Positions 57 through 46,651 of a DNA stretch of 64,000 nt are shown here, one piece after another. Numbering within the stretch: position 1 is the first letter of the stretch; each line of letters begins with the position of its first letter. Below the pieces are notes generated by a model that was given only the letters and a program-made list of their open reading frames with translations, was not told where the DNA came from and did no database searches. Where the stretch lies: positions 76,756,001 to 76,820,000 of the forward strand of contig OZ024747.1 in NCBI GenBank assembly GCA_964016885.1. Direction: 5' to 3'. The position numbers and the translations under genes were made by a program. The stretch is from Eledone cirrhosa (Eukaryota).

Positions 57-606
57 TACACACACACTCTCTCTCTCTCTCACACACATACACACACTCT
101 CTCTCTCTCTCGTCCGCACGCCTAGTGGTTAAGTTATACACAAAGTGGTGCGGTGTCATTCATGTCTTTCTTAATGTTATTGCTCCTACTTAAGGTCGAC
201 TTCTAAATCATTTGGGTGTTCCATAAACTACATCCTCGTTTTGTTTCATATCTATCTAGACTATATTTTAACCTGTAATCTATGTTTCATTTCTGTTGCA
301 CCTCATTTCTCTAACCCCCCCCCCCCCCCTATATCTCTCGTCCGCAAGCCTTGTGGTTAGGTTATATATACACATATCTTAGTGGAAGCTTTGGATTATT
401 TACTGGGACAAACACCTTTTGAAAAGTTGATTTAAGCGAAACCGATCATGTACGGAAATACAAAAACTATATATAGTTATATCTATCTACATGTATATAG
501 TTATATCTGTATAAATACAGAGTATGTAACTGAGACTGCAACAATGTATATCTAAATATATGCTTTTTAATGTGTAAACATGCCAGACTATAATATAATG
601 TAATAT

Positions 607-4078: not shown

Positions 4079-4080
<2 letters not shown>

Positions 4081-4589
4081 CGATGGAAATGTGGTAAGGA
4101 ACCAGGTGGACCATAATGCACCAAAGTACTCAATACTTAGGGTAGTAGAGTGGGTAATAGGAACGAGTAGGACCCCGACGGCTGAGCTCAAGCCGTTTCG
4201 ACGGCTAATTCTGGACTAAATGAACATTTTTATGCTGGTATATGAATAGCCGAGCTTCTCATATATGATAAAAGTTATTGCTTCCATATATGGTAAAAGT
4301 TATTGTCACAAGGATTGGTCAAAAGTTTGTTGTTGAGACACATAATTCTATCATGGCAATTTGTGGAGGGAAGGGGTAGATGAACTTGCCAGTAGAAGAA
4401 AGAGAGAGGGGGAGTGGAGGAAACCCAATCGTGCGTTGATAGTGCCAACTACAGTTCAGAATTAGCCGTCGAAACGGCTTGAGCTCAGCCGTCGGGGTCT
4501 TACTTGTTCCTATTACCCACTCTACTACCCTAAGTATTGAGTACTTTGGTGCGTTATGGTCCATCTGGTTCCTTACCACATTTCCTTCG

Positions 4590-4591
<2 letters not shown>
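4079..4591. mobile_element. Inverted-arm element (arms ~4079-4219 / 4452-4591) in (TA)n; carries an HHR 3'-half-like motif and the bulged hairpin
   Basis: Arms ~140 bp, highly similar; GAAACggct..agccGTC; related fold-back copy at 9462-9655. Confidence 0.8.
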
Positions 4592-8533: not shown

Positions 8534-9419
8534 GGTGGCGGACTGGCAACTATAAAAATTAAAAGATAGCATTCTATATGTAGGTGGACCCCTTCATCTG
8601 GCAAACAATATTTTTAGACTTTAGATTTTAGTCTTCACATTTATTGTTATTACTATACACACACACACATATAGTTTGAATCTAATTGACATGCAAAAAC
8701 ATATATATAGGAATGACGTATGCCCAAATTAACGAGGATGTTGTTTATGGAACACCCAAATGACTTAGAAGTCGACCTTAAGTAGGAGCAATAACATTAA
8801 GAAAGACATGAACGACACCACAACACTTTGTTTTGAAAATTTGAAACTAGGTTTATAAGTATGAATTTTCATAAGATTTTCATAGCTGTCTCTGTGGTCT
8901 AGCGGTAGGTACTAGAGACGATGGAGATCCTGGCTTTGGATTCAATCCTGGTCAAGAGGTACATGCAAACGTCTTCAGTTTTTATTTTACAACCAATAGA
9001 AAAAAAACTGAAAAGGTTTACCGGAAACCCTATCCCCAACTATGATCGAACTTCAGACCAGGATTACCACCGTCTGTGATTCCTCCGACTAGGCCACCGA
9101 AACAGCTACAAGAGTATGATGAAAATTGATAATTATAAACCTACTTTCAAAATCAAAGTTAAAAAGATGTGGTGGCGTTCATGGCTTTCCTAGAGCTATT
9201 AGTAATATTTAGGGTCGACTTCTGGTCATTATTGAAAGTCTCTGGATTTCGCAAAATACATAATATTTTTATTGGAGAAGGTAAGATATTTTTCCGCAAA
9301 AATTTATGTATTTTTCGAAAATGTTATTTATTCATTATAAAAATTAAATGATAGCATTCTATATGTAGGTGGGCCCCCTTCATCTCCTGGCAACCAATAT
9401 TTTTAGACCCTGTCCGCTA

Positions 9420-9461: not shown

Positions 9462-9463
<2 letters not shown>

Positions 9464-9655
9464 CGAAGGAGTTGTAGTAAGGAACCAGATGGACCATAAC
9501 ACACCAGAGTACTCAATACTTAGGGTAGCAAAGTGGGTAATAGGAAAAAGTATGACCCCGACGCAGAGCTCAGGCCGTTTCGACGGCTATTTCTGAACTG
9601 AAATAGCCGTCGAAACAGCTTGAGCTCTGCTGTCGGGGGTCATACTTTTCCCTAT
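9462..9655. mobile_element. Asymmetric fold-back copy of the 4079-4591 family
   Basis: Long arm 9462-9598 and short arm 9600-9655 meet at ctatttc tgaact gaaatag. Confidence 0.8.
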
Positions 9656-14197: not shown

Positions 14198-14201
<4 letters not shown>

Positions 14202-14473
14202 AAGTTTTATTTAAATTGTTGGCTTACAACGAGCAAATATTTATAACTGATATAAAAGCACTCAACAAGTATTTGGAGTATATTTACGATATTAAATCAA
14301 CTTTTTAAATGGAAGTTGAAGTGTAAGGTATGTCAAATCTATCTATTTATAAGACTGTTTATATTGTATTTTGTCTGATGAAGGCATACCATATTTTTAA
14401 TATGATATCCCTGAAATATATATAATGAAATAAATATGGTTTTATAAATATAGTTTCCATTTATTTAATATCG
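14198..14473. mobile_element. Short inverted remnant related to the large PLE (antisense terminal arm + sense HHR arm) in (TA)n
   Basis: 14198-14298 resembles 38641-38740; 14300-14473 resembles ~45975-46147. Confidence 0.85.
14367..14432 (+). ncRNA. Hammerhead ribozyme (same family as the large PLE)
   Basis: tattttgtCTGATGAaggcat...ccctGAAAtatatataatgaaata. Confidence 0.72.
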
Positions 14474-19032: not shown

Positions 19033-19098
<66 letters not shown>

Positions 19099-19180
19099 GT
19101 TATTCCGGGTTGAATCGGAGGTAACCACAGTAAGTAAGGTACTTAATACATAGCAGATTATAAAAGTGTTAATATAGATG

Positions 19181-19231
19181 AGATTCTACAGGACTAGAAC
19201 TGTTTCTTTCTTTAGAAATCATCAGGAATCT
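19181..19231 (-). ncRNA. Hammerhead ribozyme, same family as 3900 (element ~19098-19600)
   Basis: Reverse complement: AGATTC-CTGATGA-TTTC taaa GAAA-GAAACAG..CTGTA-GAATCT; all three helices pair; GUA cleavage site. Confidence 0.85.
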
Positions 19232-19669
19232 GGGTATCCAAAAATAAAAGTGGTTGCAGGTGGTAGGAGAGGGTGGGGAGTGGGATGGGTAGAGGTCATT
19301 GGTTGATAGAAAAGGGAATTCATTAAAAGCTAATTCTTTAAAGCTATAATTTATATTTAGAGTGACAAAGGCAGAAAGAATTCTATAAACAAGTTCAGAT
19401 TGGGGTGCCACTCCTTATTTTTAAGTTTCTCTTACGCTAACAATGCCTATATTTCAGGTGTCTATAAGATCGTTGGGGGTCGGTCATGGTTGAAGGATTT
19501 AAAGGAAAGGGAAATTCTTTAAAAGCTAATTCTTTAAAGTTCTACTTAGAGTGACAAAGGCCAAAAGAATTCTATAGACCAGTTCAAAATATTGGGTGTC
19601 TATCATATCATTATCTTCAAATTTCTCTTAAGCTATAATCCAGGTGTCAACAGACACATTCACAAACAT

Positions 19670-19706
<37 letters not shown>

Positions 19707-19942
19707 CATATGTATATATATATACACATATATATACATACACATACACATACACACACATATATATACATACACATACACATACACACACATATATATA
19801 TATATATATATACACACATACACATGTATATATATATATATATACATACATATACACACATACACATACATATACACATACATATATACATACATACACA
19901 CATATACACACATAGGTATATATACACATACACATACACATA

Positions 19943-20038
<96 letters not shown>

Positions 20039-20180
20039 TACATATATATATATACATATGCGATGAAATACCAATGATGGTTGGCAAAATCACTGATGAG
20101 GGACTAATTTTATAATATGTAATCCATGTGCAACCATGCAGTATTCTTCTTCCCCTTGTTTTTCATATATATATATATTC

Positions 20181-20211
<31 letters not shown>

Positions 20212-20293
20212 CATATATACACATATACACACACATACACATTTATATATACATACACACACATACACACATATATACACATATACGTATATG

Positions 20294-20480
20294 GTGGCTG
20301 CCAACTCGTTTTCGAGTACGGCCAATACTTTATATCCATGTATGAGAACCCCTACCGATGCGCTGAACGAGTGTGACTTTTTAGTCCAGTCAGCAACTTG
20401 AAAACTCTGGTACAAACACTGCACTTGTGACAATTATTGATACACAGTGCTGGGCCCATGGTATCATGTGACGACAAGTG
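20294..20480 (-). mobile_element. Second 3' fragment of the same RTE family
   Basis: Diverged reverse complement of ~31430-31617. Confidence 0.85.
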
Positions 20481-20679
20481 CAGAGAGATCTCCAGATATA
20501 AAGCAATGCCTGTGCCGTGGATCTTTTATAGTGAGTAAAGGAATTGCACAAAGCCAGTCCCACTCTCTTAACCAAGATGATATTTACCAAAAAGAAGAAC
20601 AAGTCAACATCATTGGATACCATCAGGGTTGCAGGTGTTATATCAGAGTTTTCCTTCTCCTAGAATTCTGCCTTGAACG

Positions 20680-20753
<74 letters not shown>

Positions 20754-20893
20754 TATATATGCATATTTATAAATATATATACATTTTAATGAATTCCCTT
20801 TTCTATCAACCAATGACCTCTACCCATCCCACTCCCCACCCTCTCCTACCACCTGAAAAGACCTATATATACCACTTTTAATTTTGGATACAC

Positions 20894-20944
20894 AGATTCC
20901 TGATGATTTCTAAAGAATGAAACAGTTCTAGTCCTGTAGAATCT
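20894..20944 (+). ncRNA. Hammerhead ribozyme, same family as 3900 (element ~20784-20960)
   Basis: AGATTC-CTGATGA-tttctaaagaat-GAAACAG..CTGTA-GAATCT. Confidence 0.8.
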
Positions 20945-20959
20945 CATCTATATTAAAAC

Positions 20960-20990
<31 letters not shown>

Positions 20991-21231: not shown

Positions 21232-21653
21232 GAGTATATGTTGGTTGTATACCAACACCTCAGTATGCAGGCTGGAGCACTCGACGAAGTGCGCAGGTTG
21301 GTTTGGTTACTCCGGAGTAATGTAAAATAAAGTAAAATAAAAAGTCAAATGTTTAAAATTTAGCTTCGTTTATTACTGCTATATATATTTCGGTGACAGC
21401 CATCTTTGGCTGTGACCTCTTCAGGCAGTCCGAATTAGTGTGGTATAGACAAGTACATATGTTGTTGAGGTGTATAATTTTGTCAATTATTGACAAAATT
21501 ATACACCTCAACAACATATGTACTTGTCTATACCACACTAATTCGGACTGCCTGAAGAGGTCACAGCCAAAGATGGCTGTCACCGAAATATATATAGCAG
21601 TAATAAACGAAGCTAAATTTTAAACATTTGACTTTTTATTTTACTTTATTTTA
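21232..21653. mobile_element. Fold-back PLE remnant: perfect 331-bp palindrome (21323-21653, centre 21488) plus ~90-nt one-sided extension
   Basis: The same 76-aa translation on both strands reflects the palindrome; microsatellite flanks; one HHR per arm. Confidence 0.9.
21547..21601 (+). ncRNA. Hammerhead ribozyme (mirror copy 21375-21429, -)
   Basis: ACTGC-CTGAAGA-ggt.acagcca aaga tggctgt.acc-GAAA-tatatata-GCAGT. Confidence 0.88.
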
Positions 21654-30867: not shown

Positions 30868-31617
30868 GCCAGTGACATCGAGGCTCTGGACAGGAGTGGC
30901 TGCGATAGTGTCGAGTCCTTGATTTTAAACATCAGCTGCGCTGGACAGGCCATCTTGTATGGATGAATGACAAGCGAATGCCGAAGCAGCTGCTTTGTGG
31001 CGAGCCCCAAATGGGAAAAAGGAACGCGAGCAAACCCTAGATGCGTTTTAAAGACTGCATCAAGGGGGCGCTCAAGAAAAGTAACATCCCTTGTGAGCAC
31101 TGGGAAGCATGCGCTAGCGACCGATCGCATTGGAGGAAAGCAGTGGCTAGTGGCAAGAGTCTATTTGAGGAAACAAGAAGAAGGCTCGCGACACTAAAAA
31201 GAGATGTCCGGAAAGGAATCCATGTTGGCCTTCCCGAAGGCACTGACAGACGGCCTGACCTGACATTTGAGACCTGTAATAGGGTTTGTCTGAGCATGGC
31301 AAGTCTAAAGAGTCACCCGAGAGTGCACAAGAACAGGGAAGCAGGCACCTGTGGAGCTATAAGTGTTCATCAGACGACAACATGTAATGTTTGTGGAGGG
31401 GTATGCAGGACGAGTAGTGATCTCACACGACACCTTGGGTCACATGGTACCATGGGCCCAGCACTAGGTGTCAATAATAGTCACAAGTATAGTGTTTGTA
31501 CCAGAGTTTTCAAGTCGCTGGCTGGACTAAAAAGCCCCACTCGTTCAGCACATCGGTAGGGGTTCTCCTACATGGATATAAAGTAGTGGCCGTACTCGAA
31601 AACGAGTTTGCAGCCAC
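30868..31617 (+). mobile_element. 5'-truncated RTE-clade LINE (ORF C-terminus + 3' end), in-frame stop at 31038-31040
   Basis: [64 protein letters not shown] is a typical RTE C-terminus; ends with a ctcgaaaacgag hairpin before (TA)n. Confidence 0.88.

Positions 31618-32128: not shown

Positions 32129-33759
<1,631 letters not shown>

Positions 33760-38572: not shown

Positions 38573-38580
<8 letters not shown>
37911..38580. repeat. 18-bp minisatellite (gagtgttgataatatakt), ~37 copies
   Basis: Direct reading; runs into the (TA)n that hosts the large PLE. Confidence 0.96.
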
Positions 38581-38644
<64 letters not shown>

Positions 38645-38772
38645 AAGTTATATTTAAAATTGTTGGGTTACAACTAGTAAATATTTATAACTGATATAAA
38701 AGCACTCGACAAATATTTGGAGTATATTTACAATATTAAATAAATGGAAAACTATATTTATAAAACCATATT

Positions 38773-38838
38773 TATTTCATTATATATATTTCGGGGATAT
38801 CATATTAACAATATGTTATGCCTTCATCAGACAAAATA
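38773..38838 (-). ncRNA. Minimal type I hammerhead ribozyme in PLE pLTR (copy 1)
   Basis: tattttgt-CTGATGA-stem II (catatt/aatatg)-GAAA-tatatata-atgaaata; helix I pairs; AUA cleavage triplet. Confidence 0.8.
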
Positions 38839-39198
38839 CAATATAAACAGTTTTATAGATAAATATATTCGACATACCGTAATAAACATCAACTTCATTT
38901 GAAGAGGTTTACTCTAGCAGTGAAAATACAGAGAGAAAGAAAGAGAGAAAGAAAAGAGGGAAAAAAGAAAGAAAGAAAGACAAAACGAAGAAGAGGAAGA
39001 AAAAGAAGAAAAAGAAAAAGAAGAAATGCATGGGACAAAATAGAGAGATGGAAAAATAGATAAAGCGAAGAGCTTCATGTAAAGAGACAGAAAGAGATAT
39101 ATATATAGAGAGAGAGAGGAAATAGAGATAGATACATATATATATATAGAAAATTAGGTAGTGGGAGGTCATTTTGAGTAAGTGTATCAATGATACAT

Positions 39199-39241
<43 letters not shown>

Positions 39242-40368
39242 GCTCAAGTATTAATGTAAGGGAGATATATAGAGAGATATAGAGAGATATAGAGAGAGAA
39301 AAAATTTAAAAATAGCCAGACATATTCGAGGCGTAGAAAACCCTATGTTTTAATGTATTAGTATTTATAAAACTTACACTATATTGTAAATATCAGTATT
39401 CCTGAATGAAACAAGTATTCACAATGTGTGAAAATTCATTATCTTATGTTTAGTTTTAAAAAATTCATATGTTTATGTGACAGCTACAAACATCAATGTG
39501 AATCCAACTGATTCACTCTGCAAACTTTTAGTTACCGGATAAACATTCTCAGTGTGGTATAAAAATTTGAGCGTATTATTATTCTTGCGATTACTCTACA
39601 AGATTATCTATCAAGCAGAAATAGAGAGCAGATTTCAATATACTAATCGAAAATATATATTATATTATAAACAAAGATAACAATAATAATAATAATAAGT
39701 AAAAAATATATAAAAATATAGAATAGAAAACTAAAAAAAATATATTACGAAAGAATATTACATAATAAAAATATTGCATATTAAAATACTACGTATTAAA
39801 AAATATTACGTATTAAAAATTTACATATAAAAATATTAAAATTAAAAAATAAAATAAAAAAATAAAATAAAAAATAAAAATATTATAGAATACTACAATA
39901 CTAAAAGAATAAAAATAAAAATAAAAATAAAAATAAAAATAAAAATAAAAATAAAAATAAAAATGAAAATAAAAATAAAATAAAAATAAACCACAAAGAA
40001 CAACCCTTCAAAGTTAATTGACAATATATTGCCAAGTTCATTACAAGACAAAGCCAAAAATTATCTATCAAATCACATCTAGCAAAGAATATCGCAAAAA
40101 AAGATTATGATGTCCAATAATGTCTACATAAGTTCCTATATTTAATATAGAAGTTTATCTAGTGTAAGGTTAATTCAAAAAAATTTGGAGCATCGGCTTT
40201 TAGGGTAGCTTAATTTTTCATGAGGAATGTTTAGATAAAAAATAATAAAAAATAAAAATAAATAAAATAAAATAAACAATAGAAAGAGTAAAAAGAGGGA
40301 ATCAAAGATTTAGGAATCAAAAGATTTATCGGCTAGTTCTCATATAAATATAAATCAAACTAAATATA

Positions 40369-42582
40369 CTACATTTTAAATTTAAATTTATATTTAAACG
40401 TTGAGTTTAATCTATGTTTGCAACAACTGAATAAATTTGTCCGTAGGTTAAGGGAATTTTTAGATTTTAGTATAAAGAATATCTCCTCTGCGCAGAGGTC
40501 ACATGTCTCAGAGGATGAATTAAAAGGAATCCCTCTTGAGACTATATTCCAAGCCGTCGAATATCTAACGTTATCTAGCTTAAGTTGCCAGAGTACCCCT
40601 GATAGTGCCGTTGAAGATTTTTTATTTGGATCTGTGAAAGAATTCTTGTGGTTATTATAGCGAAGTTTAAATTCCGTCGATGTGGAACCGACGTAGTTAA
40701 AAGAATTAGAGTCAGTATTAACATTACAATTGTATACTATATTTTTAACTAAGCAGTTGTTATTTAACGGACATTTAGATCTATCTCTACAGTTACATTT
40801 GTTAACTTGTATATTATTTATGCTATTATCAGTAGGTTTTAAGTTCCTATTATTTATTCTATTAATATTTTGTGCTAAATTTTTGGTGGATGAGTAGGTT
40901 AATTTAATTGTATGCCTATTGAAGATTGAGTGATACCTATGTGTTCTAGGGAAGCGATTATCAAGAGCTTTGAAAAATAATTTAGCGATGTGGGTTTTAA
41001 TGTTTAGTGAGAAAGGGGGGGCAAACCAAATTATGTTCCTAGTTCTATTTCTTTTTTGTCCTTTGGAATTATTGTAATGCTTTCTATTATAGTTGTTAAT
41101 GTTGTTGCCGTAATTAAAAAAGTTGTTACTTTGTTTAGTTTGTCTATCATTATCTATGTACACAATCTTATCAGCATACCCTGCCCTAGCTAGTGCATCA
41201 TTATAGTATTGGGCCTTTTCGTCAAAAATCTTTCTATTCGACGAAATCCTAGAGATACGTTTTTGGACTGAGTTTACTATAGTGTTTTTGACAGATCTGG
41301 GGTGGTTAGAGTTAAAGTTGACATAGTTTAAGTTTTCATTCAACTTGTGAAAAGGATAGTGGAGACATGTGTTGAGATTTAATGTTATATCTAGGAAATT
41401 GACTATTCTATGGTTGTTCTCAATTTCTATTTTAAGGTTAAAGTAATTAAAAAATTTTGTAATTTGTTTACATTTTCTATTTAGTTCAGGGTTATTATTA
41501 TTAATAAGTAAAAGCATGTCATCCCTATATAAACCTCCGGTAGTACCAGGTATTTTCCTATGTAGCGAATTGATTAAAAATAAGCCCACAAGGTCAGTTA
41601 CCTGAGCTGAGTCGGAGGATCCCATAGTTATGTCAAAATTGCTATCTCTATCTGCTCTGGTCCATAATTTGTCATTAAATTCTATCAAAGTTTTCCTAGC
41701 CGATAATATAATATGCATTTCTTTGCTAGTTAGGTCCGTATGTTTGAATGCGTAATTTAGTGCCTTATTTAGTAGACTAGGGGTAATAGAAGAATAATAG
41801 TTAGCTATATCAAGTTGAATAAACCTATTATTATTGTCATATTTAATTTGCCTAAACCACTCAACAACCTCTCCAGTTCCCTTCCACAAGCTCAGGTTAG
41901 ATACACAATCCAAATTCTTAATTTGCAGTATCACCCTGTCAAGAATGTTTTTGCTTAATTTGCCCAGGTCCGATTTTGAAGGTGCGATCAATCTAACTGG
42001 CAGGTCATTTTCAAAATTCCTCTTGTGGTCCTTCATATTGATCTTCGGTTTCCTGGGCACGAAAGGTTGTGTTCTGTTCTCAATTTCCAACTCATGCATT
42101 ATACAAGATGCTTCCACATTCATTTTCTCAAGTTCGGCCTTATCTGCTACCTTGTATTTTTTCCTCAGCTCTTTCAGTATGAGGCCATTATACATGTCTT
42201 TCCGCACTCCATAGAGGTTGTTAGTCTTGTCAGATTTCACCAAGATCTTCTCAGTTTTCTCTAAGCTCTCAATGTTATCCTTAATGCCTATCAGATATTC
42301 CTGGCCTTTAAAGTATCTCTTGAATTTGACCCCTTGTATGATAGAAATTATATCGTTTTCAAAGTCAGATAAAAGTTTGTTAGTGGGTGGATTTCTTTTA
42401 GATTTGAAAACTTTGTTTAAGTCCGAGATATTTTCGTCTGCATTAGATTTATCAAAGTGGAATGCACGCCACCTGATTCTCCTTATAAAAGAGTCAGATT
42501 TATCTATTAGTTGTTTTACAAAGTCTTTGTTTCTAGGTAGAGGTATGTCTTTTAGAGAGGAAGTAATCTTAAAGAATTCCAT
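40369..42582 (-). CDS. Penelope-like retroelement polyprotein: reverse transcriptase + C-terminal GIY-YIG endonuclease (737 aa, uninterrupted)
   Basis: N-terminal PLE-type SLKDIP...RIRWRAFHF; RT motifs ILVKSDKT, QLDIANYYSSI, ITMGSSDS, GLYRDD, VNFLDITL, SNHP; Cys-rich linker CNCRDRSKCPLNNNC; GIY-YIG equivalents NIVY..YVGST..FKLRYNNH; C-terminal CDLC..E...LN..CKH. Confidence 0.96.
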   Translation of the reverse strand: MEFFKITSSLKDIPLPRNKDFVKQLIDKSDSFIRRIRWRAFHFDKSNADENISDLNKVFKSKRNPPTNKLLSDFENDIISIIQGVKFKRYFKGQEYLIGIKDNIESLEKTEKILVKSDKTNNLYGVRKDMYNGLILKELRKKYKVADKAELEKMNVEASCIMHELEIENRTQPFVPRKPKINMKDHKRNFENDLPVRLIAPSKSDLGKLSKNILDRVILQIKNLDCVSNLSLWKGTGEVVEWFRQIKYDNNNRFIQLDIANYYSSITPSLLNKALNYAFKHTDLTSKEMHIILSARKTLIEFNDKLWTRADRDSNFDITMGSSDSAQVTDLVGLFLINSLHRKIPGTTGGLYRDDMLLLINNNNPELNRKCKQITKFFNYFNLKIEIENNHRIVNFLDITLNLNTCLHYPFHKLNENLNYVNFNSNHPRSVKNTIVNSVQKRISRISSNRKIFDEKAQYYNDALARAGYADKIVYIDNDRQTKQSNNFFNYGNNINNYNRKHYNNSKGQKRNRTRNIIWFAPPFSLNIKTHIAKLFFKALDNRFPRTHRYHSIFNRHTIKLTYSSTKNLAQNINRINNRNLKPTDNSINNIQVNKCNCRDRSKCPLNNNCLVKNIVYNCNVNTDSNSFNYVGSTSTEFKLRYNNHKNSFTDPNKKSSTALSGVLWQLKLDNVRYSTAWNIVSRGIPFNSSSETCDLCAEEIFFILKSKNSLNLRTNLFSCCKHRLNSTFKYKFKFKM

Positions 42583-42761
42583 TTTTCAGTTATAATATAA
42601 AGCGCTCAACAGTATTGGAGCAAGATACATGTAAAGTTATATTTAAAATTGTTGGGTTACAACTAGTAAATATTTATAACTGATATAAAAGCACTCGACA
42701 AATATTTGGAGTATATTTACAATATTAAATAAATGGAAAACTATATTTATAAAACCATATT

Positions 42762-42827
42762 TATTTCATTATATATATTTCGGGGATATCATATTAACAA
42801 TATGTTATGCCTTCATCAGACAAAATA
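42762..42827 (-). ncRNA. Hammerhead ribozyme in PLE pLTR (copy 2)
   Basis: Identical to 38773-38838. Confidence 0.8.
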
Positions 42828-43187
42828 CAATATAAACAGTTTTATAGATAAATATATTCGACATACCGTAATAAACATCAACTTCATTTGAAGAGGTTTA
42901 CTCTAGCAGTGAAAATACAGAGAGAAAGAAAGAGAGAAAGAAAAGAGGGAAAAAAGAAAGAAAGAAAGACAAAACGAAGAAGAGGAAGAAAAAGAAGAAA
43001 AAGAAAAAGAAGAAATGCATGGGACAAAATAGAGAGATGGAAAAATAGATAAAGCGAAGAGCTTCATGTAAAGAGACAGAAAGAGATATATATATAGAGA
43101 GAGAGAGGAAATAGAGATAGATACATATATATATATAGAAAATTAGGTAGTGGGAGGTCATTTTGAGTAAGTGTATCAATGATACAT

Positions 43188-43226
<39 letters not shown>

Positions 43227-44350
43227 GCTCAAGTATGTAAGGGAGATATATAGAGAGATATAGAGAGATATATAGAGAGAAAAAAATTTAAAAATAGCCA
43301 GACATATTCGAGGCGTAGAAAACCCTATGTTTTAATGTATTAGTATTTATAAAACTTACACTATATTGTAAATATCAGTATTCCTGAATGAAACAAGTAT
43401 TCACAATGTGTGAAAATTCATTATCTTATGTTTAGTTTTAAAAAATTCATATGTTTATGTGACAGCTACAAACATCAATGTGAATCCAACTGATTCACTC
43501 TGCAAACTTTTAGTTACCGGAAAACATTCTCAGTGTGGTATAAAAATTTGAGCGTATTATTATTCTTGCGATTACTCTACAAGATTATCTATCAAGCAGA
43601 AATAGAGAGCAGATTTCAATATACTAATCGAAAATATATATTATATTATAAACAAAGATAACAATAATAATAATAATAATAATAAGTAAAAATATATAAA
43701 AATATAGAATAGAAAACTAAAAAAAATATATTACGAAAGAATATTACATAATAAAAATATTGCATATTAAAATACTACGTATTAAAAAATATTACGTATT
43801 AAAAATTTACATATAAAAATATTAAAAATAAAAAAATAAAATAAAAAAATAAAATAAAAAATAAAAATATTATAGAATACTACAATACTAAAAGAATAAA
43901 AATAAAAATTAAAATAAAAATAAAAATAAAAATAAAAATAAAAATGAAAATAAAAATAAAATAAAAATAAACCACAAAGAACAACCCTTCAAAGTTAATT
44001 GACAATATATTGCCAAGTTCATTACAAGACAAAGCCAAAAATTATCTATCAAATCACATCTAGCAAAGAATATCGCAAAAAAAAGATTATGATGTCCAAT
44101 AATGTCTACATAAGTTCCTATATTTAATATAGAAGTTTATCTAGTGTAAGGTTAATTCAAAAAAATTTGGAGCATCGGCTTTTAGGGTAGCTTAATTTTT
44201 CATGAGGAATGTTTAGATAAAAAATAATAAAAAATAAAAATAAATAAAATAAAATAAACAATAGAAAGAGTAAAAAGAGGGAATCAAAGATTTAGGAATC
44301 AAAAGATTTATCGGCTAGTTCTCATATAAATATAAATCAAACTAAATATA

Positions 44351-45280
44351 CTACATTTTAAATTTAAATTTATATTTAAACGTTGAGTTTAATCTATGTT
44401 TGCAACAACTGAATAAATTTGTCCGTAGGTTAAGGGAATTTTTAGATTTTAGTATAAAGAATATCTCCTCTGCGCAGAGGTCACATGTCTCAGAGGATGA
44501 ATTAAAAGGAATCCCTCTTGAGACTATATTCCAAGCCGTCGAATATCTAACGTTATCTAGCTTAAGTTGCCAGAGTACCCCTGATAGTGCCGTTGAAGAT
44601 TTTTTATTTGGATCTGTGAAAGAATTCTTGTGGTTATTATAGCGAAGTTTAAATTCCGTCGATGTGGAACCGACGTAGTTAAAAGAATTAGAGTCAGTAT
44701 TAACATTACAATTGTATACTATATTTTTAACTAAGCAGTTGTTATTTAACGGACATTTAGATCTATCTCTACAGTTACATTTGTTAACTTGTATATTATT
44801 TATCCTATTATCAGTAGGTTTTAAGTTCCTATTATTTATTCTATTAATATTTTGTGCTAAATTTTTGGTGGATGAGTAGGTTAATTTAATTGTATGCCTA
44901 TTGAAGATTGAGTGATACCTATGTGTTCTAGGGAAGCGATTATCAAGAGCTTTGAAAAATAATTTAGCGATGTGGGTTTTAATGTTTAGTGAGAAAGGGG
45001 GGCAAACCAAATTATGTTCCTAGTTCTATTTCTTTTTTGTCCTTTGGAATTATTGTAATGCTTTCTATTATAGTTGTTAATGTTGTTGCCGTAATTAAAA
45101 AAGTTGTTACTTTGTTTAGTTTGTCTATCATTATCTATGTACACAATCTTATCAGCATACCCTGCCCTAGCTAGTGCATCATTATAGTATTGGGCCTTTT
45201 CGTCAAAAATCTTTCTATTCGACGAAATCCTAGAGATACGTTTTTGGACTGAGTTTACTATAGTGTTTTTGACAGATCTG
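44351..45280 (-). pseudogene. 5'-truncated duplicate of the PLE ORF (RT thumb + GIY-YIG), with a 1-nt frameshift in the G run near 45000
   Basis: Translation matches the C-terminus of 40369-42582 with one substitution in the 219-aa track ORF; the G run is one base shorter than in copy 1. Confidence 0.9.
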
Positions 45281-45644
45281 AAGTTTGCAGAGTGAATCAG
45301 TTGGATTCACATTGATGTTTGTAGCTGTCACATAAACATATGAATTTTGACAGATCTAAAAGTTTGCAGAGTGAATCAGTTGGATTCACATTGATGTTTG
45401 TAGCTGTCACATAAACATATGAATTTTTTAAAACTAAACATAAGATAATGAATTTTCATACATTGTGAATACTTGTTTCATTCAGGAATACTGATATTTA
45501 CAATATAGTGTAAGTTTTATAAATACTAATACATTAAAACAGGGTTTTCTACGCCTCGAATATGTCTGGCTATTTTTAAATTTTTTTCTCTCTATATATC
45601 TCTCTATATCTCTCTATATATCTCCCTTACATTAATACTTGAGC

Positions 45645-45679
<35 letters not shown>

Positions 45680-46039
45680 ATGTATCATTGATACACTTAC
45701 TCAAAATGACCTCCCACTACCTAATTTTCTATATATATATATGTATCTATCTCTATTTCCTCTCTCTATATATATATATATCTCTTTCTGTCTCTTTACA
45801 TGAAGCTCTTCGCTTTATCTATTTTTCCATCTCTCTATTCTGTCCCATGCATTTCTTCTTTTTCTTTTTCTTCTTTTTCTTCCTCTTCTTCGTTTTGTCT
45901 TTCTTTCTTTCTTTTTTCCCTCTTTTCTTTCTCTCTTTCTTTCTCTCTGTATTTTCACTGCTAGAGTAAACCTCTTCAAATGAAGTTGATGTTTATTACG
46001 GTATGTCGAATATATTTATCTATAAAACTGTTTATATTG

Positions 46040-46105
46040 TATTTTGTCTGATGAAGGCATAACATATTGTTAATATGATATCCCCGAAATATATATAATG
46101 AAATA
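46040..46105 (+). ncRNA. Hammerhead ribozyme in inverted PLE arm
   Basis: tattttgtCTGATGAaggcat...atccccGAAAtatatataatgaaata. Confidence 0.8.
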
Positions 46106-46143
46106 AATATGGTTTTATAAATATAGTTTTCCATTTATTTAAT

Positions 46144-46202
<59 letters not shown>

Positions 46203-46214
46203 TAAATAGATATA

Positions 46215-46646
46215 TGTAGAAGTTGCATATAATTTGTTGGAAGTCCGACAAACATAAATGTTTATAACTGATTTGGAGCACTCAACAAGTTACTGGAGTA
46301 AATATTCAATGATATTAAATAAATGGAAACTATATTTATAAAACCATATTTATTTTATTATATATATTTCAAGGGCAACCAAGACACCATTGGTGCGCTT
46401 TCATCAGATAAAATACAAAGTTTGTTTTATAAATAGAGACGTACCCATGAAAATCATACCTTATCGGTTGACTATCCAGTGAATTTCCAACCGATAAGGT
46501 ATGATTTTCATGGGTACGTCTCTATTTATAAAACAAACTTTGTATTTTATCTGATGAAAGCGCACCAAGGGTGTCTTAGTTGCCCTTGAAATATATATAA
46601 TAAAATAAATATGGTTTTATAAATATAGTTTCCATTTATTTAATAT

Positions 46647-46651
<5 letters not shown>
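46215..46651. mobile_element. Fold-back PLE remnant (sister family): 164-bp inverted arms (46307-46470 / 46488-46651) plus ~92-nt one-sided extension
   Basis: Arms are reverse complements with 3 mismatches seen; 3' region similar to the large PLE pLTR; TA-rich flanks. Confidence 0.88.
46543..46607 (+). ncRNA. Hammerhead ribozyme (mirror copy 46351-46415, -)
   Basis: TATTTTAT-CTGATGA-aag..cacc/ggtg..ctt-GAAA-tatatata-ATAAAATA; perfect 8-bp helix I. Confidence 0.82.

Follow-up and report, generated by a model that had tools for sequence, protein, structure and literature searches.

Inserts of a Penelope-like element (PLE) in the genome of Eledone cirrhosa end at two fixed termini, here called L and S, and they are almost always asymmetric, with one arm beginning at L and the inverted arm at S. 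An earlier note on this DNA had reported the asymmetry and asked whether L/S pairs exceed what random L/L and S/S pairing would give. The observation is confirmed and is not chance. Among the ends listed for family A over about 248 Mb of C1, all 61 convergent pairs are L/S, with 0 L/L and 0 S/S (binomial P 3.4e-19), and the 72 family A inserts read through in sequence, a set that partly overlaps the 61 pairs and is enriched for long inserts, are L/S without exception, far above random. The pairs were drawn from all 100 L ends listed and from those 88 of the 100 S ends listed that lie in the same part of C1 (0-247.9 Mb). Convergent partners had to be neighbours no more than 12 kb apart; 66 ends had none among the ends listed, and two neighbour pairs that did not converge were set aside. 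The window, that is the whole stretch of 64,000 nucleotides analysed, is C7:76,756,001-76,820,000, and positions given without a sequence name refer to it.

Architecture and class of the insert at 38641-46147

The insert at 38641-46147 is a three-part Penelope-like insert of family A between two (TA)n runs, the left of which, the (TA)n target, occupies 38576..38640. It consists of a full unit of 3,989 bp in antisense orientation (38641-42629, minus strand), a partial tandem formed by a second pass of the L arm over unit 1-2659 (42630..45280, minus strand), and an inverted S arm running from unit 891 to 91 (45281..46147, plus strand), at whose joint 68 bp are duplicated. The tail, from the L terminus at 38641 to the S site at 38729-38731, is found on one arm only (38641..38730, minus strand). 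The full unit holds an intact ORF of 737 aa (40369..42582, minus strand). Arms commonly stop at unit 277-286, with the mode at 281 (38921; 38918..38925, minus strand), a putative RNA 5' end. A type I hammerhead motif, found with a regex scan and read by eye, lies at 38773..38838 (minus strand) with a cut predicted after 38781. The order along the RNA at a family A junction is the putative start (unit 281), the hammerhead, S, the S hairpin, L, the L hairpin and the AUG. Elsewhere, at C7:78450400-78472000, full-length units are arrayed head to tail, more than three of them, with their ORFs intact.

To which group does family A belong? Its single ORF joins RT motifs to a C-terminal GIY-YIG-type region, as in EN+ PLEs, and the copies show the partial tandem that forms pLTRs, the adjacent inverted 5'-truncated copy and the one-sided tail. 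The traits described for the Hydra clade in the text of Craig et al. 2021 (PMC8557442) recur here: the domain order, DKG modified to DKT (at 118), RW(K/R) (RIRWRAF in this protein and RWK in several homologues), the CxCX5C linker, CxxC and CxH (CNCRDRSKC, CDLC and CKH in the alignment), the lack of CCHH, the (TA)n target and a hammerhead in the pLTR. The last, identified by motif and of putative activity, has a CUGAUGA...GAAA core with palindromic stem III and stem I. Judged by these motifs against the published description, family A is an EN+ Penelope-like retrotransposon of the Hydra clade. Its tail of 88-90 nt, like the 42-115 nt of the families in the window, departs from the 30-40 bp usual in EN+ PLEs, which is a typical size and not a defining trait. 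The closest named protein relatives of the ORF are from the octopod Argonauta hians; Pfam and a PDB sequence search gave no hit. An Rfam search did not report a hammerhead; its only matches, to hairpins, fell below threshold and lay at an inversion centre. Stem II of the family A hammerhead closes with an A-C mismatch (38823 and 38793), where family B has AAG/CUU, and the family A hammerhead may be a weak ribozyme.

Two sharp termini

The ends of inserts are not spread continuously along the element. At the loci examined, 152 direct joins of (TA)4 to unit -59..400 of family A fall 77 at L, 73 at S and only 2 elsewhere, so that 150/152 form the two sharp peaks that the earlier note had proposed to look for. 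All 73 S junctions are at unit 91, and the L junctions divide into 44 at unit -1 and 33 at +2; L is thus two micro-sites 2-3 nt apart, and S a single site. Exact-pattern counts over the whole genome are nearly equal, with 1,535 L ends and 1,522 S ends. Both kinds of junction join (TA)n via 1-2-nt TA microhomology, and the nick geometry and target-site duplications are masked within (TA)n. In a de novo scan for inverted inserts, the TA run inside the hammerhead interfered with the (TA)4 threshold.

The termini read in the window agree with this picture. Position 38641 directly follows (TA)n, as had been claimed for the start of the large insertion. The end of its inverted arm had been put at the equivalent of 38729; this stands within the ambiguity of the TA microhomology at 38729-38730, and the end at 46147 itself matches C38731. 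The older family A insert at 14198..14473 is L/S as well and uses the same two positions with an offset, and thus a tail, of 89.

Several further families had been said to share the design, and all the offsets named for them were reproduced within 3 nt. The tail is 92 in the L/S insert of family B at 46215..46651 (given as ~92, at 46215), 87 in the L/S insert of family C at 21237..21652 (~90, at 21232), 77 in the L/S insert of family D at 9463..9655 (~77, 9462 vs 9655) and 115 in the S/L insert of family E at 32227..32980 (~115, 32980 vs 32227). For family F it is 71 (~74, 4033 vs 20960), read from L and S ends that face each other at 19098..20960 with other material between them; this is probably one insert. 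A further family, H, which had not been named, has a tail of 42 (33055..33660).

Some observations on these families and their surroundings may be added. The tandem unit of family E is non-coding, 532 bp long and retrozyme-like (window 32227-32980; C1:178960530-178962964). Family E resembles family A in its L hairpin but has another stem at S, all it shows of a hammerhead is a core-like motif with wide spacing, and it probably moved in trans. In families B and D, (TG)n or (GA)n often lies between (TA)n and the element at L ends, which were found with a search pattern that itself selects for such flanks; these repeats could be due to RT stuttering at the start or to later microsatellite growth. 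The window also contains many copies of a ~190-bp SINE-like repeat (605-790, and about 12 other places), an old palindrome of 70% identity without (TA)n ends (8759-9230), and a frame of 172 aa (31041-31559) that is probably a LINE remnant and whose weak hits to C2H2 zinc fingers stay under the Pfam cut-off.

Pairing of L and S outside family A

Does the pairing hold in other families? Family D (n=41) has 33 L/S, 1 L/L, 0 S/S and 7 unclassified inserts, two of the L/S rows being near-duplicates. Family B (n=29) has 14 L/S, 0 L/L, 1 doubtful S/S, 2 other and 12 single, and family E (n=13) has 7 L/S, 1 L/L-like and 5 unresolved. The L/L-like exception in family E is at C9:22685192, where the right arm begins at L and, after unit 38, continues from the S position.

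Two L/L cases had been reported in the window, and only one of them survives. The segment 32645-32980 is not an L/L insert and was rejected as such, because 32645 lies inside the S/L insert 32227-32980, at a tandem junction that 40/44 listed matches run across. The family D insert reported at 4079-4591 is truly L/L (4080..4590), but its arms bear the signatures of two different subfamilies, unlike the arms of L/S inserts of this family, which mostly agree in signature.

Relation between the two arms

In 26/72 family A inserts the S arm extends into the element beyond the end of the L arm by more than 30 nt, the L arm reaches further in 23/72, and the arms are level, with ends within 30 nt of each other, in 23/72. 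The tail is present on the L arm only. Since the S arm often outruns the L arm and only the L arm has the tail, neither arm is a copy of the other, and copying by fold-back, in which one arm is the template for the other, is excluded. Either arm can enter a second pass; S arms do so in 3 inserts.

The two arms of an insert are related all the same in their source. Variants that differ from the majority are common to both arms at 6.9/kb, against 1.1/kb (maximum 2.5) in 500 permutations (63 inserts). The stops of the two arms also agree: both are near unit 281 in 17 inserts, both are long in 37, and 2 are mixed (Fisher 1.7e-12, with 16 inserts with a shorter arm set aside). The two arms thus share a source locus. 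This fits one RNA molecule but does not require it, since two RNAs transcribed from that locus would give the same picture, and later gene conversion between the arms could also have produced the shared variants.

What is the stop near unit 281? In a sample enriched for long inserts, 42/144 family A arm ends fall at unit 266-296, at an Inr-like site. The motif there is TCA+1CT at unit 281 (38921), which we take to be Inr-like by consensus. Only 2/23 second-pass arms that reach unit 266 stop at 266-296, so the stop is not an intrinsic pause, and the long and tandem copies would come from RNA without an end at unit 281. Unit 281 would be an RNA 5' end, and the long and tandem copies likely come from multimeric or circular RNA.

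Short inserts are numerous, 21/61 paired inserts being 400-500 bp, and palindromic joints around CTAG are common among them. No two inserts need have the same joint, joints being variable, and arms end anywhere between 57 and more than 6,000 nt.

Predicted bulged hairpins beside the two termini

A bulged hairpin with a covarying inner stem is predicted 6-7 nt 3' of S, and in family A there is one 3' of L also. In the sense RNA of family A, the S hairpin (38704..38723, minus strand; second copy at 42693-42712) reads ACUC-[inner stem-loop]-UC-GAGU, that is an outer stem, a 2-nt bulge and an inner stem, and lies 7 nt 3' of S. The L hairpin (42604..42621, minus strand) lies in the 5' UTR 6-9 nt 3' of L, reads GCUC-[...]-UU-GAGC, and occurs solely at tandem junctions. 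The L-site motif is thus the S-site motif with G-C replacing A-U, and the two predicted hairpins are 88 nt apart on one RNA. As a separate observation, the L context (42585-42629) resembles the S context (38690-38731) over about 45 nt, which suggests that the two start signals may have arisen by duplication.

The ACTC/GAGT motif matches 11/35 tail groups, some of which are related to each other or are false inserts, against a shuffle mean of 1.3. In the register with the 2-nt 3' bulge, 35/39 inner-stem cells pair over 13 distinct motif instances, with C-G, U-A, G-C and A-U pairs all in use. Other registers pair 8-14/39 cells, the shuffle mean is 24.8 and 0/10,000 shuffles reach 35; the 13 instances were picked by their outer stem, and the statistic ignores relatedness. 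This motif-anchored count was used in place of a MAFFT alignment of 8 sequences, in which covariation was not above shuffles.

Several points count against start sites set by a hairpin, namely the partial motif coverage (11/35), the odd stem of family E at S, the MAFFT null and the weak folds. Isolated hairpins have only -3 to -10 kcal/mol, and the minimum-energy fold forms the outer stem at S and L of family A and not in B, C, D, E-L or F. The L hairpin was read in families A and E only, and several families are without the motif. Pattern searches for tandem junctions in families D and B found none, only host or microsatellite flanks.

Mechanism of integration and its alternatives

How are the two ends of an insert primed? 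The earlier note had proposed two programmed sites on the RNA, one for each strand of the cut (TA)n. The results support this proposal, and we infer that each end uses the one RNA. Priming at two sites is very probable. The full scenario, in which two RTs on matching hairpins of one RNA junction prime the cut (TA)n ends at L and S, seems reasonably probable.

This one-RNA scenario would run as follows. The endonuclease would cut both (TA)n strands, for which another PLE gives an in vitro precedent, and each 3' end would anneal to UA/AU, 1-2 nt of the RNA that lie 5' of a bulged hairpin at a distance of 6-9 nt. For this step junctions, microhomology and covariation are observed, and the hairpin is predicted. 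Two enzymes, one per hairpin of one junction, would each take one cut end, and both RTs would copy toward the RNA 5' end. On an RNA starting at unit 281 both would run off and give stubs of ~470 bp; on a longer, multimeric or circular RNA they would stop at scattered places, and either arm might enter a second round. Here the arm ends are seen, and we infer the templates. At last the two cDNA ends would join head to head by microhomology or short fillers, a presumed repair route to joints that are themselves observed.

More generally, PLE integration might be a programmed twin priming, in which an RT-endonuclease dimer holds two homologous bulged hairpins of one RNA and assigns one cut DNA end to each hairpin. 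The length of the tail would then be set by how far apart the hairpins are, and an RNA circle made by the hammerhead would be the template of the full-length and tandem copies, which roll off it. This wider idea is tentative, slightly less likely than not.

Some points weigh against the one-RNA scenario. It requires strand displacement to copy the same stretch twice, and the anole PLE of Frangieh et al. 2024 uses its start sites in vitro without a difference between strands (PMC11167929). Another explanation is that the same two RT start sites are used on separate RNAs from one locus, with an asymmetric complex forcing one L and one S. It would avoid strand displacement, and it accounts for the two sites, the pairing, the shared variants and the concordance of stop classes if one locus supplies the RNA of the cell. 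But it has to add a rule against L/L and S/S, the two hairpins 88 nt apart sit on one RNA, and the only L/L insert of the window (4080-4590) is precisely the one whose arms come from two subfamilies, which would speak for one RNA. We consider separate RNAs unlikely.

Could an endonuclease make the asymmetry afterwards? According to the view in the text of Craig et al. 2021 (PMC8557442), the structure is resolved by endonuclease: both arms would begin at L, or one would be made by another route, and one arm would be trimmed at S, guided by a hairpin in single-stranded DNA. However, S joins (TA)n by the same TA microhomology as L and at nearly the same distance from its hairpin, RT start at both sites is described in vitro in PMC11167929, and trimming exactly one arm in 61/61 pairs needs an asymmetry of its own. 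This makes trimming quite improbable.

Self-priming on an antisense template, discussed in PMC3846280, would have one cDNA turn back and copy its own strand as far as S. The CTAG palindromic joints of short inserts and the 23 inserts with level arms are in its favour, but the 26 with a longer S arm, the restriction of the tail to the L arm and the 3 S arms with a second pass largely refute it for long inserts; it is very improbable as a whole and could survive only for some stubs. A single asymmetric master that is copied as a unit, in the manner of a MITE, or an assembly artefact can hardly be believed and was rejected. The 400-500 bp inserts do look alike, but joints vary across copies with no identical ones seen, and several subfamilies and unrelated families obey the same rule.

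Comparison with known systems

Twin priming is familiar from L1, where both target strands prime cDNA and a head-to-head inversion joined by microhomology results. In L1 the internal site taken by the second primer varies and there is hardly any overlap of the arms, whereas family A has two fixed sites and a wide overlap.

A closer parallel is PAc, the Poseidon element of Anolis carolinensis. According to the text of PMC11167929, two internal RT start sites bound the tail in vitro, and the protein cleaves and extends both target strands; the hammerhead is dispensable, and a dimer is predicted. Family A is like it in that the spacing of the putative start sites equals the tail, a stem-loop is predicted at the start region and the target is AT-rich. 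PAc differs in belonging to another clade, in having its start sites inside the ORF and not upstream of it, and in one AC-rich stem-loop being described instead of twin bulged hairpins. The text of that paper gives no L/S pairing rule, while the rule is strict in family A.

The Pen2/Pen2a elements of Adineta vaga, as described in the text of Arkhipova et al. 2013 (PMC3846280), share the head-to-head inverted pLTR, a tail on one arm (31-bp) and an Inr-like TCACT in the pLTR. Their tail is called optional, and their TSDs are visible while those of family A are hidden in (TA)n. The inversion was ascribed to self-priming, which the arm lengths of family A contradict.

The inverted arm, the one-sided tail and the tie of the tail to two RT start sites are therefore already in the published texts (PMC8557442, PMC3846280, PMC11167929), and the L/S rule is a sharper form of this known PLE tail phenomenon. 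A literature search of mainly open-access texts found no pairing count, no twin bulged hairpins, no tails up to 115 nt and no argument from arm lengths, parts of which subscription papers and the supplement figures of Frangieh et al. may hold. Nothing on termini came from a retrozyme preprint or from a paper on Octopus repeats.

Why does the rule matter? The origin of the inverted repeats and one-sided tail of PLEs is incompletely explained, with endonuclease resolution, self-priming and two RT start sites all in print. The 61 pairs without exception, the arms that are not copies of each other and the hairpin at a fixed distance from each start narrow the options to one testable model, and the window supplies an intact ORF for testing it. 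In this model, RNA signals would fix the two ends of an insert together, in a single step, a point that matters for gene insertion with retrotransposons.
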